64,000 bases of DNA from Candidatus Magasanikiibacteriota bacterium (GTDB taxonomy: Bacteria; Patescibacteriota; Patescibacteriia; Magasanikbacterales; GWA2-37-8): assembly GCA_041666745.1 (NCBI GenBank), contig JBAYGI010000004.1:3440-67439 (forward strand), written 5' to 3'. This document shows positions 3,011 through 18,153 of the stretch, one piece after another. The notes below the pieces were generated by a model. The model did not search any database. It saw nothing but the letters and a program-made list of their open reading frames with translations, and had not been told where the DNA came from. Position numbers and translations under genes: made by a program. The stretch's first letter is position 1. Every line of letters begins with the position of its first letter.

Positions 3011-4423
3011 TCAATTTTTGATTCGAACAATTTCTTTGATGGTTTCTTTGGAAATTACTTGAAATAATAAAATAAAGACAATATAGACTGTCCCGCCAAG
3101 CAAAATCGACAGCACAACATTTGGTAATTGGAAGTGTTGGATGAAAAAATACATAATAAATCCGGATAACAAAATTTTGGCCAGCGATTTTATACGAGGT
3201 AAAAAATCGGTGTGGTAAAAAACCAAAAACATCAGCATCGCGCCGGCATAAATTTCTGAAAAAATAGTTACTCCGGCCGCTCCATAGATTCCAAAACGGG
3301 GAATAAAAATAAAATAACCGACAAGACTTAAAATGGCATCGGATAAATAAATCCAGATAGCTTGCTTTTGTTTGTTGATAGCTAGCGCGGTATAGCCAAA
3401 GACGATTCCCATGCATATTCCCAAAATTGTCCAGCTTAGCCAGGTTAAAATTTTCCCCGATCCGACAAATTCCTGTCCGCCAACCAGTTGCATAATCGGC
3501 TCGGCCAAAGTATAAGCGCCAATCATCATCGGAATTAGTAGTAGAGCCATGAGATCAAAAGACATTTGAAGATGTTTTTTGAATTCAACGTGTTGGGCGC
3601 GAGAATAAAAATACGCTAACAGCGGTGACATAATACCCATAGTGAGCGCGGCTGTTTGTACGATCACATCCAACACCCGATAAGCGGCGCCATAAAAACC
3701 AACCTGAATTTGCGAGCTATAAAGAGGTAAAATCACGCGATCTCCTTGTAAATAAAAAGAATTGAAGATGATACACAGGGCGGTCGGATATATTTTTTGA
3801 AAAATTGCTTGAAAAATTTCACGATCAAAAGTGAACTTAATTTTTGGCATTTTATAAAACAAATATATCGCGTTTACCACCGAGGCGCTGGTCAAGATAA
3901 TCATGAACGGTAAAAAGGCGGCGTTGTGTCTTATTAACAAAATTACTCCGAACAATAAAACGATTCGGCCGATCAATTCGCCGGCGGTAATAATTTGAGT
4001 TTTGAGTTGTTGTTGAAAATATCCGGAAAATACTTGGTTGATGCTAATGGCAAAAAAGGAAATAGAAGTAATCGCCACCGCGATTTTTACTTCAACTGGA
4101 TAGGGGAAGAATAAAAATAACAGAGGGGCTAATCCTTGGAATAAGACGGCGGAAAAAAATCTCAAGGTAAATAAATTGTTTAATAATTTTTCTTTATCAA
4201 ATTTTGGTTCGGCCAGCATATTGGCGGTCGTGATAGCAAAACCAAAATCACTGAAAATGCCGACAAATTGCAAAAAGCCAATCGCGGTAGTGTACCAACC
4301 GAATTTTTCGGCTCCCAAACTGCGGATAATCAAAAAAATTGTCAGCAACCCCAAAATAGTACTGACCACTTTGCCGATTAACTGCACGATAGTATTGTGG
4401 GCGATTTGTCTTTTGATAGTCAT
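3011..4423 (-). CDS. MOP-superfamily polysaccharide/lipid-linked oligosaccharide flippase (Wzx/MurJ-like)
   Basis: 470-aa polytopic membrane protein with 12-14 TM segments, typical of Wzx/MurJ flippases. Confidence 0.55.
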   Translation of the reverse strand: MTIKRQIAHNTIVQLIGKVVSTILGLLTIFLIIRSLGAEKFGWYTTAIGFLQFVGIFSDFGFAITTANMLAEPKFDKEKLLNNLFTLRFFSAVLFQGLAPLLFLFFPYPVEVKIAVAITSISFFAISINQVFSGYFQQQLKTQIITAGELIGRIVLLFGVILLIRHNAAFLPFMIILTSASVVNAIYLFYKMPKIKFTFDREIFQAIFQKIYPTALCIIFNSFYLQGDRVILPLYSSQIQVGFYGAAYRVLDVIVQTAALTMGIMSPLLAYFYSRAQHVEFKKHLQMSFDLMALLLIPMMIGAYTLAEPIMQLVGGQEFVGSGKILTWLSWTILGICMGIVFGYTALAINKQKQAIWIYLSDAILSLVGYFIFIPRFGIYGAAGVTIFSEIYAGAMLMFLVFYHTDFLPRIKSLAKILLSGFIMYFFIQHFQLPNVVLSILLGGTVYIVFILLFQVISKETIKEIVRIKN

Positions 4424-14331: not shown

Positions 14332-14356
14332 AAGTATAAGGCATGCTTGTAGTGGT

Positions 14357-14385
14357 GAACCCCGTCTTGATGACGGGGTTTTGGT
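14357..14385 (+). terminator. intrinsic terminator after nrdJ
   Basis: AACCCCGTC ttgatg GACGGGGTT followed by TTGGTTT. Confidence 0.55.
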
Positions 14386-14496
14386 TTCAAAAAACCACCT
14401 GTCGCCAATAAATTCAAATTTTTAAATTCATTGGCGAATGCAGGTGGTGATGAGACCTCCCGCATTCGGTTGCGGGAGAAAAAGAGCGGGGTGGTG

Positions 14497-14895
14497 TTAG
14501 ACCAGAACGAACGGGTGGATGTCCTGGTCATTCTCGTTGAATGCCTCGTTGGCATAATAGACGAGAACGGAACCGGGCGCCAGTACGAAGGCGTGTGCAG
14601 TGCCAGGCTCGACCATCACGTGGAAGGGGGCGGAGATGGCGGTGTGTTGGACGTCGAGGACGAACATCTTGGTGTCGGCATGAAGGAACAACCCGTTTCC
14701 ATGCTTGAGATCAAACGTCTCGGTCGTCCTCTCGTGGAAGTGGTTTCCGAGCGGAAACGCACTTTTCACCACCAGCACCTTGACTGAGAAGCCGACTTCT
14801 GGGCAATTTAGTTCGAAAATGGCTCGTCGACCATCTTCGTGCACCTTGGTAAATCCACGTGCGAGTATTGCCCTCACTTGGTCTTCTACATTCAT
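14497..14895 (-). CDS. cupin-fold protein, WxcM/FdtA-like sugar ketoisomerase/epimerase family (high-GC island)
   Basis: 132 aa with a GNHFHE...H cupin metal motif and a C-terminal acidic tail like FdtA/QdtA. About 55% GC. Other ORFs overlap on both strands, as expected by chance in GC-rich DNA. Confidence 0.4.
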   Translation of the reverse strand: MNVEDQVRAILARGFTKVHEDGRRAIFELNCPEVGFSVKVLVVKSAFPLGNHFHERTTETFDLKHGNGLFLHADTKMFVLDVQHTAISAPFHVMVEPGTAHAFVLAPGSVLVYYANEAFNENDQDIHPFVLV

Positions 14896-15018
14896 GACGT
14901 ATCATCCAAAGCCCAATGTAGCGGGCAGGATGTTTTTTAAATACCATATTTTGACCAATTTGTCAATATTGGAAGGATTGTGTAGAATACCAATTATGAA
15001 ATTTGTAATAAATATTTT

Positions 15019-15558
15019 ATGACAAAAATATATACCAAAACCGGTGACAGTGGCGAGACAACTTTGCTTGGCGGTGAACGTGTTACCAAGGATTGTATTA
15101 CTCTACAAGTGGTGGGAGAGATTGACGAACTCAATTCCAAGTTGGGTGAGGTGGTCGCGCATTTGTGGGAGGAAGAGCCGGTTGATTTTTTAAAAAAAAT
15201 TCAAGGTGATCTTTTTAAGGCGGGGGCTGAAGTGGCCAGTTTGCAAACGGAATTTAATTCTAAAATAATAATAATCGGCCAAGAAGAAATTGAGGAGTTG
15301 GAAAATAATATCGATGCCTATGCCGAACAGCTACCTGAATTAACAAACTTTATTTTACCCGGTGGAAATTTATCGGCCGCGCATTTGCATCACGCTCGTA
15401 CTATTTGTCGTCGGGTGGAGCGAGTGTTGGTAATGTTGGGAAAAGAAAAAAAAGTGCGTCCGGAATTGTATAAATATTTTAATAGATTGAGTGATTATTT
15501 TTTTATTGCGGCGAGGTGGATAAACTTTAATGATGGGGTGGAGGAACATAAAGTTTAA
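15019..15558 (+). CDS. PduO-type ATP:cob(I)alamin adenosyltransferase
   Basis: N-terminus MTKIYTKTGDSGETTLLGGERVTKD...VGEIDELNS is the hallmark of the MMAB/PduO family. 179 aa. Confidence 0.85.
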   Translation: MTKIYTKTGDSGETTLLGGERVTKDCITLQVVGEIDELNSKLGEVVAHLWEEEPVDFLKKIQGDLFKAGAEVASLQTEFNSKIIIIGQEEIEELENNIDAYAEQLPELTNFILPGGNLSAAHLHHARTICRRVERVLVMLGKEKKVRPELYKYFNRLSDYFFIAARWINFNDGVEEHKV

Positions 15559-15597: not shown

Positions 15598-15626
15598 TTG
15601 ACATTGTGCACTTTTAAAATTACAAT
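15598..15626 (+). promoter_or_regulatory. sigma70-like promoter (TTGACA, 17 nt, TACAAT) heading a ~255-nt untranslated leader
   Basis: Read directly from the sequence. The next start codon is at 15882. Confidence 0.35.
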
Positions 15627-15805
15627 GGACAAGACTTTTCTCTACAGAGTTGCGACAGATTTGATGTTTCAATCGGATCGGATTCTGAAAACATTCTCTC
15701 TCCATTTCCTTTATAATTTATTATCTTGGAATGGCGTTTTCTAGATTTGATTCGCAAATTAATACATGCAGATCTGCTCGCAGCTCTGTGGAGAAAAAAT
15801 CAATT

Positions 15806-15830
15806 GCCCAGGTGGTGTAATGGTAGCCAC
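15806..15830 (+). other. tRNA 5'-half-like fragment (acceptor plus D-arm) resembling the downstream tRNA-Leu
   Basis: GCCCAGGTGGTGTAATGGTAGCCAC compared with the tRNA-Leu 5' half GCTCAGGTGGCGGAATGGTCTACGC, about 18 of 25 identical. Confidence 0.4.
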
Positions 15831-15881
15831 GTGATAAGGTATATTGTAATGCGTATGCTATTATGATATACTTTATTTATT

Positions 15882-16352
15882 ATGAGACCAAAAAAATGGA
15901 CAGAGCAACAGCTTAGAGAAATTGTTCCAACAGTTACTAGTGTGCGTCAAGTTTTAAGAGAACTTGGGCTTAAAGAAGCTGGTGGAAATTATGCGCAGAT
16001 AAAAAAATTTTTAAAAGAATATAAAATAGATATCTTGCATTTTACTGGTGTTGGTTGGAATATAGGAATGAAAATGCAGATTAACACAGCTAAACCGTTA
16101 AAAGAAATACTGATTAAAAATAGTAGTTATCAAAGTTTTAAGTTAAAAAAAAGATTGTTTGCAGAGAAAATAAAAAAACCATATTGTGAATTGTGTGGAT
16201 GGGCAAAGTTGTCGATAGACGGTCGAGTACCTTTAGAGTTAGATCATATAAATGGTGATCACTCAGATAATAGGATTGACAATTTACGAATTTTATGTCC
16301 TAATTGTCACAGTTTACAGTTAACTCATAGAGGTAGAAACAGAAAAAAATAA
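15882..16352 (+). CDS. free-standing HNH endonuclease
   Basis: C-terminal ELDHINGDHSDNRIDNLRILCPNCHS is a canonical HNH motif with zinc-finger Cys/His. The stop codon lies 5 nt before tRNA-Leu. Confidence 0.8.
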   Translation: MRPKKWTEQQLREIVPTVTSVRQVLRELGLKEAGGNYAQIKKFLKEYKIDILHFTGVGWNIGMKMQINTAKPLKEILIKNSSYQSFKLKKRLFAEKIKKPYCELCGWAKLSIDGRVPLELDHINGDHSDNRIDNLRILCPNCHSLQLTHRGRNRKK

Positions 16353-16357
16353 AATAT

Positions 16358-16437
16358 GCTCAGGTGGCGGAATGGTCTACGCAAGAGACTTAAAATCTCT
16401 CGCCGCAAGGCTTGCGGGTTCGAGTCCCGCCCTGAGC
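16358..16437 (+). tRNA. tRNA-Leu (anticodon TAA), class II with long variable arm
   Basis: Acceptor GCTCAGG/CCTGAGC, anticodon stem AGAGA/TCTCT, loop CTTAAAA, long variable arm CGCCGCAAGGCTTGCGGG, T-loop GTTCGAGTC. CCA is not encoded. Confidence 0.85.
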
Positions 16438-16440
16438 ACT

Positions 16441-16473
16441 AAAAATACTACTTTTATGAAGTAGTATTTTTAT
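16441..16473 (+). terminator. intrinsic terminator after tRNA-Leu
   Basis: Perfect palindrome AAAAATACTACTT ttatg AAGTAGTATTTTT. Confidence 0.6.
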
Positions 16474-16530
16474 TTGTTGTGTTATTAAAATCGTGATACT
16501 ATTACTCTTTATCCTAAGTAAATAATTTTT

Positions 16531-17400
16531 ATGCCTCCAGATAAATATTCCGCTGTTTGGGTTTCACACACCTCTATTTCTGATTTTTTGAAATGTCCGC
16601 GGGCTTATTTTTTGAAAAATGTTTATCGCGATCCAGCGACCAAACACAAAATAAAAATAATGTCGCCGACGTTGGCTTTGGGGCAGTGTGTGCATGAGGT
16701 TTTGGAATCATTGTCGCAGTTGCCTCGTGGGGGTCGGTTTAGTGAGCCGTTGCCAAATAAATTTGAAAAAGTTTGGGAAAAAATAAAAGGAGAAAAAGGC
16801 GGGTTTCCAAACGATGACACTGAATATCAATATAAAAAACGTGGCTTGGACATGTTGGCGCGCGTGTATAATCATCCGGGACCAATAAACAATCTGTCAG
16901 TAAAAATTCAAATGGATTTGCCGTATTATTGGTTGTCCGAAGAAGATAATATAATTTTGTGCGGTAAAGTCGATTGGCTGGAATATTTTCCAGACACAGA
17001 TAGTGTACACATCATAGATTTCAAGACCGGTAAAATTCAGGAAGAAGAAAGTTCGTTGCAGTTGCCGATATATAGTTTGTTGGTTTCCAAATGTCAAAAA
17101 AGAAAAGCCACCAAGGCCAGTTATTGGTATTTGGCGGAAAATGATAACCTAACTGAAAAACCATTACCGGATTTGGAAGAATCGGAGAAAAAAATATTGG
17201 AGATCGCCAGACAGATGAAAGTGGCTCGACAGATTAACCGTTTCAAATGCCCGAATGGCGAAGATGGATGTTTTGCTTGCAAGCCGTTTGAATCCATACT
17301 AAATAAGACGGCCAAATTGGTCGGCCAAGATGAATATGGCGCCGATGTCTACATTATTGATAGTATTGAGAAAGAAAACAGGGAAGGGGAGATTTTGTAA
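16531..17400 (+). CDS. PD-(D/E)XK nuclease superfamily protein (Cas4/RecB-like, Fe-S Cys motifs)
   Basis: IIDFKTGK (D-x-K), QLPIYSL (QxxxY), N-terminal Cys (LKCPRAYF) and C-terminal CPNGEDGCFAC cluster, as in Cas4/AddB nuclease domains. No cas genes nearby. Confidence 0.6.
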   Translation: MPPDKYSAVWVSHTSISDFLKCPRAYFLKNVYRDPATKHKIKIMSPTLALGQCVHEVLESLSQLPRGGRFSEPLPNKFEKVWEKIKGEKGGFPNDDTEYQYKKRGLDMLARVYNHPGPINNLSVKIQMDLPYYWLSEEDNIILCGKVDWLEYFPDTDSVHIIDFKTGKIQEEESSLQLPIYSLLVSKCQKRKATKASYWYLAENDNLTEKPLPDLEESEKKILEIARQMKVARQINRFKCPNGEDGCFACKPFESILNKTAKLVGQDEYGADVYIIDSIEKENREGEIL

Positions 17401-17504
17401 ATAAAAAATATGTTTAAAATCGGCTGTCTTGCGTTGACAAGCCGGTTTTTTGTGATATAGAAATTATGCATGCCCGCGACGTTGGGCTGTGAGGAAAGAG
17501 TCAA

Positions 17505-17858
17505 ATGAGGAGCTTCTGGGAAAAAAACAAAGTACACGTGGTGATATACATGTTCATCGTCGTTAGTGTCGCCCTGTTCGTGTGGCATGGTGAGTTTTTG
17601 GATGGTCTTCGACTCGAACGCGAGAAGATCGTCGTAGAACAAGCCTTGGCCAAGCAGGCACGAGCTAAGATGGTCGCCAAGGAGGAGGTGATCGACTCGC
17701 TTCAGTATTTCCGTGATCCGCGAGATCCGCTTGACCCGAGATGTTTCTTGTCGGTTGGGTTGGGGGCTGCGACCGGTGTGACACTTCTCGTGTCCGTTGA
17801 CTGCGCTTCGATCCCGCCAGATCTCCTGCGAGATGTGTTTTCACCCAAGCAGGAGTAG
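17505..17858 (+). CDS. hypothetical protein (one TM) in a high-GC island
   Basis: 117 aa, GAGGAAAGAG SD-like sequence upstream, about 57% GC. No recognised motif. ORF length alone is weak evidence in GC-rich DNA. Confidence 0.3.
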   Translation: MRSFWEKNKVHVVIYMFIVVSVALFVWHGEFLDGLRLEREKIVVEQALAKQARAKMVAKEEVIDSLQYFRDPRDPLDPRCFLSVGLGAATGVTLLVSVDCASIPPDLLRDVFSPKQE

Positions 17859-17861
17859 GGC

Positions 17862-18059
17862 GTGTGGGGCAACTGTTCTTTCAACTATGTTTTTGAATGC
17901 CCATTCCCGCCAATAACTTGGCGAGATGGTATCCAAAAGCATGAGCTGGAGAGGGTGGGAGTTTCGGCTCTGCGCCTCTCCAAACCCTCTGTCGGTTTTG
18001 CCGGCACTGATGAGTCCGACGACTGCTCAACCAAGGACGAAAGGGAAAACTGTGGATAA
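17862..18059 (+). CDS. hypothetical small protein in a high-GC island
   Basis: 65 aa, GTG start 4 nt after the upstream stop, AGGAG upstream. Weak evidence. Confidence 0.2.
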   Translation: MWGNCSFNYVFECPFPPITWRDGIQKHELERVGVSALRLSKPSVGFAGTDESDDCSTKDERENCG

Positions 18060-18153
18060 CTATTGGTTAGTTTTTACAAAATAAGGCTCTTTTTACTTTA
18101 TATTAGCCAAAAACAGGCAAAAAACTTGACAATTTTATATAAACTAGCTTCAT

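Follow-up and report, generated by a model that had tools for sequence, protein, structure and literature searches.

A probable HNH homing-endonuclease cassette at the tRNA-Leu(UAA) gene of Patescibacteria

We analysed a 64,000-nucleotide (nt) stretch of a Candidatus Magasanikiibacteriota genome (contig JBAYGI010000004.1 of assembly GCA_041666745.1, positions 3,440 to 67,439 of the forward strand), referred to here as the window, in which a small HNH endonuclease gene stands between a fragment of a tRNA-Leu(UAA) gene and an intact tRNA-Leu(TAA). Probably, a cassette with a free-standing HNH homing-endonuclease gene entered the tRNA-Leu(UAA) gene and gave rise to this arrangement. Comparison of loci shows that the ancestral order, kept in relatives, is promoter, 167-nt structured RNA, tRNA-Leu(UAA), and terminator, and that in the window the old tRNA has been replaced from nt 27 onward by a promoter, the HNH gene, and a complete tRNA-Leu(UAA) of another allele. 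As the same alignments show, the cassette carries only the promoter and the HNH gene, together with the linked complete tRNA, and the old terminator follows. The specificity for tRNA-Leu(UAA) is family-wide: Among the loci compared, every evaluable HNH member is located directly upstream of a tRNA-Leu(UAA). Judged from these sequence comparisons, the element in the window belongs to a family that spans the superphylum and is specific for tRNA-Leu(UAA), and is no isolated case, which goes beyond what a preliminary description of the window as a single sequence could see.

Empty, filled, and refilled sites at the tRNA-Leu(UAA) gene

Positions 15806..15831 of the plus strand correspond to nt 1-26 of a tRNA-Leu(UAA), comprising the 5' strand of the acceptor stem and the D arm. 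The first 25 nt of this remnant, GCCCAGGTGGTGTAATGGTAGCCAC (15806-15830), occur once in the window and lie 51 nt 5' of the HNH start codon. On the same strand follow the HNH open reading frame (ORF; 15882..16352, 156 amino acids) and, 5 nt after its stop codon, the tRNA-Leu(TAA) (16358..16439). The preliminary description, which had reported a tRNA 5'-half-like fragment about 50 nt upstream of an HNH ORF that ends 5 nt before the tRNA, is borne out in these coordinates.

Relatives without the HNH gene reveal the state before insertion. In the loci L092, L093, L100, and L102, an intact tRNA-Leu(TAA) begins 3-4 nt past the end of the structured RNA; in the window, 3 nt separate the end of this RNA from the start of the remnant. 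The tRNA-Leu of the empty sites L092 and L093 begins with GCCCAGGTGGTGTAATGGTAGCCACG, to which its 3' acceptor strand CCTGGGC pairs, and window positions 15806-15831 are identical to nt 1-26 of this intact tRNA-Leu(TAA) at 26/26 positions. Both the window and the HNH-containing locus L095 track the empty sites through G26 and then diverge into the HNH promoter. Hence, the remnant ends exactly at the boundary between D arm and anticodon stem. On the right side, the tRNA of the window is followed by an AT-rich 9-bp hairpin and a T run, read from the sequence as a likely terminator (16445..16476, plus strand); a terminator scan missed this hairpin because its stem contains few G-C pairs. A homologous hairpin follows the tRNA in the HNH-less L093, and the right flank of hairpin and T run is, by this comparison, conserved and common to window and empty site. 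Together, the empty sites define an insert of only ~550 bp.

The linked tRNA differs from the old allele in the D arm, the anticodon stem, and the variable arm, and over its whole length. Moreover, the 3' part of the old tRNA is absent from the HNH-containing genomes. A deletion could therefore not have recreated the empty allele, which is consequently ancestral, and the polarity of the change is insertion. The comparison with related loci proposed in the preliminary description thus yielded empty tRNA-Leu sites (L092, L093) and revised its view of the fragment as a partial tRNA copy: The tRNA-Leu origin stands, but the fragment is the stump of an older resident allele and not a duplicate of the present tRNA. 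The intact downstream tRNA is, as the alignments indicate, a different allele that arrived with the cassette or was co-converted by it. As a separate observation, the old-allele tRNA-Leu of L093 (3885-3966, minus strand) has the T loop TCCGAGT in place of TTCGAGT, a change at the normally invariant U55 that could be a sequencing variant or reflect a weakened tRNA.

Remnant and downstream tRNA 5' half are identical at 18/25 positions without gaps and differ by a double change in one D-stem pair (T11-A24 versus C11-G24). Given so short a fragment with just 18/25 identity to the neighbouring tRNA, an intergenic 25-mer might resemble a tRNA 5' half by chance. A hidden Markov model (HMM), built from the 5' 34 nt of 79 other tRNA-Leu(TAA) genes and searched with nhmmer over the 64-kb window, assigns 20.6 bits to the remnant (expect value, E, 3.5e-5), 24.3 to the true tRNA 5' half, and 6.8 to the next-best site. 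None of the shuffled remnants reaches this score (0/1000), a control anticipated in the preliminary description, and the fragment is tRNA-like beyond chance. Together with the 26/26 identity to a real tRNA-Leu at the orthologous site and comparable tRNA-Leu remnants at the same offset in at least 10 other lineages, these values leave a chance resemblance with a negligible probability. Compared with tRNA 5' halves from 80 related loci, the remnant matches Leu isoacceptors best, with the top matches in L042 (GCCCGGGTGGTGTAACTGGTAGCCACG) and in the Magasanikbacterium locus L012. An origin from tRNA-Cys, which stands upstream of HNH in about half of the family loci, is rejected, as Cys 5' halves match far less well than Leu ones, and all other types score below Leu too.

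Remnants of a tRNA-Leu 5' part are also found in L050, L068, L043, L025, L024, L055, and others, likewise between -76 and -37 relative to the ATG, and in each of them the homology to the locus's own tRNA stops at about nt 26. In L050 and L068, the D arms of remnant and linked tRNA are nearly identical. The acceptor part of the remnant is deleted in L003, while L034, L046, and L099 retain only a D-loop-like core. In two Falkowbacteria-like loci, L035 (757-1144) and L068 (1609-1993), the gene upstream of the HNH cassette is a transfer-messenger RNA (tmRNA). In L035, where the tmRNA ends only ~75 nt 5' of the ATG, the Leu remnant has lost its acceptor part, which L068 keeps; the pair illustrates erosion of the stump from its 5' side. 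In L027, a 30-nt copy of a tRNA-Leu 5' half (GCCGAGGTGGCGAAATTGGTAGACGCAAGT..., 3837-3866) stands 12 nt 5' of a tRNA-Leu(TAG) (3879-3961). An HNH gene is absent from the interval, and the copy may have been left behind by a cassette since lost or by an event that was aborted.

The tRNA-Leu(UAA) gene is the classic host of a bacterial group I intron, and HNH genes are often intron-encoded (PMC3428280). The two tRNA parts could accordingly belong to a split or intron-containing tRNA-Leu(UAA), spliced from a 5' and a 3' part around an intron-encoded HNH gene, as in cyanobacteria. Against this stands the downstream tRNA, which is complete and canonical by itself: It is recognized by ARAGORN, scores 61.6 bits with the Rfam tRNA model, and is uninterrupted, in agreement with the preliminary description of an intact gene without intron. 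Moreover, the breakpoint at nt 26/27 lies outside the anticodon loop, and the upstream part lacks the acceptor strand in most lineages. We regard splicing as highly unlikely. A hidden ribozyme or intron between remnant and tRNA was rejected as well, as no Rfam group I or group II intron is found there at the gathering score or at E <= 10.

The left flank of the insertion site is formed by the 167-nt structured RNA (15634..15802, plus strand), which folds as a long rod with a minimum free energy (MFE) of -67 kcal/mol (z = -9.15). Among 12 homologues, pairing holds in 96% of the cells and both partners have changed in 19 pairs, a covariation that 0/500 shuffles reach. The RNA is better conserved among relatives than the HNH coding sequence, contains an invariant 9-nt pyrimidine-rich bulge, CAUUCUCUC, and has homologues in L002, L003, L034, L046, and L091-L102. 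No Rfam family matches the 167-nt RNA, and with its paired and covarying central region it does not resemble a classical 6S RNA. It is preceded by a sigma-70-type promoter, TTGACA-17-TACAAT (15598..15626, plus strand; 11/12 matches in a promoter scan), whose two hexamers are invariant in five related loci. In HNH-less relatives, this promoter presumably also drives the tRNA-Leu located directly behind the RNA. Since the two are directly adjacent there, they are probably made as one transcript and processed by RNase P.

A separate promoter with a TG-extended -10 element, TTGTAA-17-TATACT (15844..15872, plus strand; promoter scan), serves the HNH gene and is kept in L002, L003, L034, and L046. 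Its -10 hexamer ends 9 nt 5' of the ATG, so that the mRNA is probably leaderless or nearly so. In the promoter scan of the plus strand, no promoter-like site was found between 15873 and 16357. As there is no sign of a separate tRNA promoter, the tRNA-Leu is probably co-transcribed with HNH and freed by RNase P.

Near relatives show that the site has been filled more than once. A degenerate pattern of the structured RNA, run against metagenomes, retrieved 12 loci, each of which has this RNA, and four clades were defined by the identities of the flanking genes and of the structured RNA. Clade I, with 94-98% amino acid identity in rpoB, contains HNH type A, the empty site, and HNH type B side by side. 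Type A comprises the window, L002, and L095, whose HNH proteins are 86-89% identical to each other. The empty site of clade I is L093, with an rpoB 98% identical to that of L002. L099 carries type B, an HNH protein only 55-59% identical to type A behind a structured RNA that is 92-93% identical. Both loci of clade II are empty, while clade III has one HNH-containing locus (L003) and one empty locus (L100). On this sequence evidence, the site is polymorphic for presence and absence and has received at least two independent HNH lineages. As the same site is empty, occupied by type A, or occupied by a second type of ~57% identity in near relatives, the element is mobile.

The preliminary description had read the locus as a footprint of either site-specific integration or homing. 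tRNA genes are classic integration sites, partial tRNA repeats typically flank islands, and the ORFs between the tRNA and the next conserved gene, a PD-(D/E)XK nuclease gene, vary in L002 and L003, all of which would suit an integrase-type integrative element or genomic island with HNH as cargo. The evidence at the junctions points elsewhere. The segment that separates the two repeat copies encodes neither an integrase nor a recombinase; by comparison with the empty sites, the 156-amino-acid HNH gene is the sole ORF of the insert; and the repeated part is the 5' part of the tRNA, not the 3' part. A direct repeat of the tRNA 3' end, which had been proposed for 17.4-18.1 kb, is absent: The window contains no second tRNA 3' end at <=3 mismatches. 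An integrase-borne element is therefore very improbable, and of the two proposed origins it is homing that fits the empty sites, the HNH-only cassette, and the second HNH lineage.

The HNH protein and its family in Patescibacteria

The HNH protein matches the Pfam families HNH_3 and HNH above cut-off, while NCBIfam yields sub-threshold matches only. Residues C102, C105, C139, C142, H122, N134, and H143 are invariant in 116 homologues and form two CxxC motifs together with a DH...N...H motif. The AlphaFold2 model is confident (predicted local distance difference test score, pLDDT, 87.6) and places a domain of three helices at the N terminus, ahead of the beta-beta-alpha-Me nuclease domain, which is of the zinc-bound kind. 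When the PDB was searched by sequence and by fold, the matches were generic HNH nucleases only (McrA, ScoMcrA, Cap5), with nothing informative for the three-helix domain. The phage family PHROG 10822 matches the whole protein (E 3.3e-43), with residues 2-156 aligned to positions 4-157 of the 245-position profile. A GIY-YIG domain is not matched, and the family searches give HNH families only. Along with the invariant residues and the confident fold, a ratio of non-synonymous to synonymous substitution (dN/dS) of 0.07-0.13 speaks for an intact nuclease. In the Paceibacterota locus L036 (2501-2970), the final HNH histidine is replaced (CPNCY for CPNCH) in an otherwise intact ORF, which may thus encode a nuclease that is kept although it has lost its activity.

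Close homologues of the protein number more than 3600, the named ones all being from Patescibacteria, and a scan of GTDB species genomes gives at least 556 relatives. A same-strand tRNA-Leu(TAA) lies downstream in 80/82 HNH loci from many candidate phyla and starts at a median of 46 nt past the CPNCH motif; the two exceptions are one truncated and one N-masked locus. In 42 loci, the gap between stop codon and tRNA is 0-11 nt, while in 36 the ORF runs into the tRNA, which explains odd C-terminal extensions among homologues. In 37 loci, a tRNA-Cys on the same strand is found no more than 300 nt 5' of the ATG. The ubiquitous Patescibacteria proteins annotated as "HNH endonuclease signature motif" constitute one coherent tRNA-Leu-linked element, which calls for caution in annotation. 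HNH loci with typical Patescibacteria tRNA clusters also occur in metagenome-assembled genomes labelled Gammaproteobacteria, Pseudomonadales, Nevskiaceae, Clostridia, Elusimicrobia, and Omnitrophica (L011, L013-L015, L019, L024, L038, L044, L047, L060, L063, L064, L080). These labels are probably due to mis-binning or mislabelling, although the element could occur outside Patescibacteria.

The region upstream of the ATG is patterned across the family. A D-arm-like 7-mer (GGTAGAC and variants) is found in 39/81 loci versus ~2 expected, with a peak at about -60, and its complement GTCTACC stands beside the -10 element in 30/81 loci, again versus ~2 expected. In many loci, this 7-mer is all that survives of the remnant. 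The directed motif test is clear, while a generic inverted-repeat search upstream of HNH was noisy. Further, a -10-like hexamer lies 6-9 nt 5' of the ATG in 41/76 loci, a spacing that suggests leaderless mRNAs.

Proposed mechanism and the question of domestication

The arrangement suggests the following course of events. The nuclease would recognize HNH-less tRNA-Leu(UAA) genes via their D-arm region and cut or nick them near nt 26/27. The break would then be repaired by copying the HNH-bearing locus, with the conserved T arm and 3' end of the tRNA and the terminator as homology on the right side, and the 5' part of the tRNA or the upstream RNA gene as homology on the left. Thereby, the linked tRNA allele would be co-converted, so that the cell always retains a working tRNA-Leu(UAA). 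Such a co-conversion would predict a whole-length difference between the linked tRNA and the invaded allele, as is seen, although the empty sites L100 and L102 carry alleles similar to the linked one. The tRNA probably relies on transcription through the cassette, whose loss would then be costly. In many members, the D-arm-like inverted repeat (GGTAGAC/GTCTACC) brackets the promoter and probably restricts HNH expression; by analogy with T4 endonuclease genes, it would serve as an operator or would form a hairpin in transcripts that read through.

Several observations weigh against this account. The predicted cut site is read from the junction alone, and the linked tRNA itself keeps an intact 26/27 junction, so that immunity of the HNH-bearing allele must rest on sequence differences. 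The empty sites L100 and L102 carry alleles similar to the HNH-linked tRNAs; these may be secondary losses or natural alleles. Additionally, the remnant is identical at 26/26 positions in the window, L002, and L095, while the 50-nt spacers of these loci are only 60-76% identical and their HNH genes have diverged to a synonymous distance (dS) of ~1. A stump that stays invariant over such a divergence is not simply a decaying scar: Either the remnant is selected, or diverged type A cassettes have repeatedly invaded a conserved old allele. The inverted repeat is ambiguous in a similar way. Its form GGTAAAC...GTTTACC around the promoter recurs in phage loci of IMG/VR, and since it is also present in phage cassettes that follow a complete tRNA, the D-arm-like motif elsewhere may belong to the cassette rather than being a footprint of the invaded gene. 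Finally, ORFs are intact in essentially all 80 top loci, pairwise HNH identities are tightly distributed with a median of 63% across Patescibacteria classes, and the nearest HNH neighbours often come from the same taxon, as in Moranbacteria, Magasanikbacteria, and Saccharimonadales. This conservation and the same-taxon neighbours suggest that much of the history, including its deeper part, is vertical.

For a selfish gene, such conservation is unusually high, and a host function stays in play as a minority possibility. HNH and its promoter could have been domesticated and now belong, by essentially vertical inheritance, to the expression unit of tRNA-Leu(UAA), where they would supply the tRNA promoter or act in regulation or quality control, with the remnant as an ancient relic kept as a regulatory element. 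The median identity of 63% across classes, a dN/dS of ~0.1, the nearly universal intactness of the ORFs, and the frequent same-taxon neighbours would all follow from such a role, as would the effectively 100% adjacency to tRNA-Leu(TAA), the tRNA without its own promoter, and the positional conservation of the D-arm-like motif and its complement around the promoter. However, in relatives with 94-98% rpoB identity the gene is missing and a normal tRNA-Leu follows the structured RNA, a different HNH lineage occupies the same site in L099, the full-length homologues are typical free-standing phage HNH genes, and the insertion destroyed the old tRNA. We therefore consider domestication rather unlikely, though the strong conservation keeps it alive as a minority view, and retain invasion by a homing cassette as the better explanation.

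More tentatively, and with less than even confidence, the module may be a superphylum-wide gene drive that time and again overwrites the single-copy tRNA-Leu(UAA) with the allele linked to it, has become locked in as the transcription unit of this tRNA, and limits its own expression, through the nuclease or through read-through RNA, via the D-arm-like repeat. If so, turnover of tRNA-Leu(UAA) alleles in Patescibacteria would be driven by a selfish nuclease, and the spread of the element would be a direct record of DNA exchange among episymbiotic, mostly uncultured lineages. Most known homing endonucleases come from phages, organelles, introns, and inteins. Here, an intron-less chromosomal case is at hand in which the insertion is mapped to the nucleotide, with empty, filled, and refilled sites. 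Throughout a very large and mostly uncultured radiation, the element is bound to a single tRNA gene that is essential and present in one copy. If homing is the correct reading, the element would provide a natural marker of recombination and gene flow among lineages of the candidate phyla radiation (CPR), an example of a selfish gene that preserves its host gene by bringing a spare copy, and a candidate site-specific nuclease with a tRNA-gene target.

Neighbouring genes, phage relatives, and known systems

A non-coding stretch of 320 nt separates the HNH ORF from a PduO-type cobalamin adenosyltransferase gene (15019-15558), itself preceded by a class II ribonucleotide reductase gene. Downstream of the tRNA follow the PD-(D/E)XK nuclease gene (16531-17400) and, further on, rpoB. 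The spacing between tRNA-Leu and PD-(D/E)XK gene is variable among relatives. L002 (4703-5416) contains an extra ORF of 237 amino acids, and L003 (4688-5404 and 6507-6944) contains two of 64 and 171 amino acids and, behind the nuclease gene, an EamA gene. The extra ORFs have no Pfam match, and all these genes are missing in the window.

Two patches around the locus differ in base composition. Between the PD-(D/E)XK gene and rpoB (17500-18100), G+C content reaches ~53% versus ~38% nearby, and a 117-amino-acid ORF with a hydrophobic N-terminal segment has no Pfam match. By blast coordinates, the corresponding gap in L093 is much shorter, and the stretch in the window may be another insertion. 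It contains a candidate type III hammerhead ribozyme (17985-18048, plus strand) with all core elements present: CCCUC followed by UGUCGG-loop-CCGGCA, CUGAUGA, GUCC-17 nt-GGAC, GAAA, and GGG. This candidate is unproven, with 19.8 bits for Rfam Hammerhead_3 against a gathering score of 48.5 (E 0.06 on 221 nt) and an MFE no better than shuffles (z = -0.5). A second G+C-rich patch of up to 57% lies just past the ribonucleotide reductase gene (14350-14950). There, a minus-strand ORF of 132 amino acids (14497-14895) has sub-threshold Pfam matches only, while the gene call of the source is a plus-strand ORF of 118 amino acids.

Relatives of the HNH protein are common in phages. tblastn finds homologues in 264 phage records, 64 of which cover >=80% of the query, and full-length homologues in large lytic phages are 35-46% identical. 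The homologue of a Felix O1-like phage lies in a tRNA cluster and ends 1 nt 5' of a tRNA-Leu(TAG), that of cyanophage S-CRM01 stands between a tRNA-Leu(CAA) and another tRNA, and that of Staphylococcus Kayvirus follows tRNA-Asp and tRNA-Phe. In IMG/VR, 72/80 homologue loci have tRNAs within 2.5 kb, with a tRNA-Leu(TAA) directly upstream in 28 and directly downstream in 8 of the 80. Phage copies show 35-54% identity and usually follow a complete tRNA, whereas the window copy follows a stump. The F-Tfl enzymes of phage T5 are likewise HNH endonucleases linked to phage tRNA clusters.

HNH genes within tRNA clusters have been noted in Felix O1-like phages (PMC3185647) and in mycobacterial and phage tRNA arrays (PMC5966550). 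These studies record the tRNA association without mapping an insertion site or an empty site. Literature searches yielded no description of this HNH-tRNA-Leu element in CPR/Patescibacteria. As a probable free-standing homing-endonuclease gene in a tRNA context, the element is notable for the mapped site, the replacement of the invaded tRNA, and the spread across Patescibacteria.

The element shares single features with other tRNA-associated elements. Like the group I intron in the tRNA-Leu(UAA) of cyanobacteria and plastids, it is selfish and sits in the same host gene. The intron, however, lies in the anticodon loop and is spliced out, whereas the HNH element lies at nt 26/27, has no ribozyme, and keeps function by tRNA replacement instead of excision. 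As in tRNA-targeting integrative elements, the invaded tRNA gene stays functional since the arriving DNA makes up for the tRNA sequence that is lost, and the border is marked by a partial tRNA copy. Such elements span kilobases, rely on an integrase, and duplicate the 3' part; in contrast, the HNH element lacks a recombinase, leaves the 5' part stranded, and brings the whole tRNA.

Homing-endonuclease genes of phage T4, such as I-TevI, are subject to autorepression at an operator that resembles the homing site, and hairpins block translation from their read-through transcripts. The Patescibacteria element resembles this regulation in its compact gene unit and in a promoter between the arms of an inverted repeat, one of which is like the presumed target, the tRNA D arm. 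The regulatory details must differ from those of T4, since the main Patescibacteria type has the two arms 5' of the -10 element and an apparently leaderless mRNA.

The closest parallel is T4 SegB, a proven free-standing homing endonuclease of the T4 tRNA gene cluster, which recognizes a conserved tRNA motif and whose homing carries neighbouring tRNA genes into genomes without the nuclease (PMC2330249). Both systems place a free-standing nuclease gene among tRNA genes, and in both, genomes without the nuclease are otherwise homologous. SegB is a GIY-YIG enzyme, whereas the Patescibacteria protein is a zinc HNH nuclease and hence not a member of the SegB family. SegB recognizes the T-psi-C motif, while the junction described here points to the boundary between D arm and anticodon stem. 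Further, SegB is phage-borne, and the HNH element is chromosomal, bound to one tRNA species, and superphylum-wide. In our best reading, drawn by analogy, the HNH element resembles SegB in its logic, yet is chromosomal, occurs across a whole superphylum and, unlike SegB, leaves a 26-nt stump of the gene it invaded.

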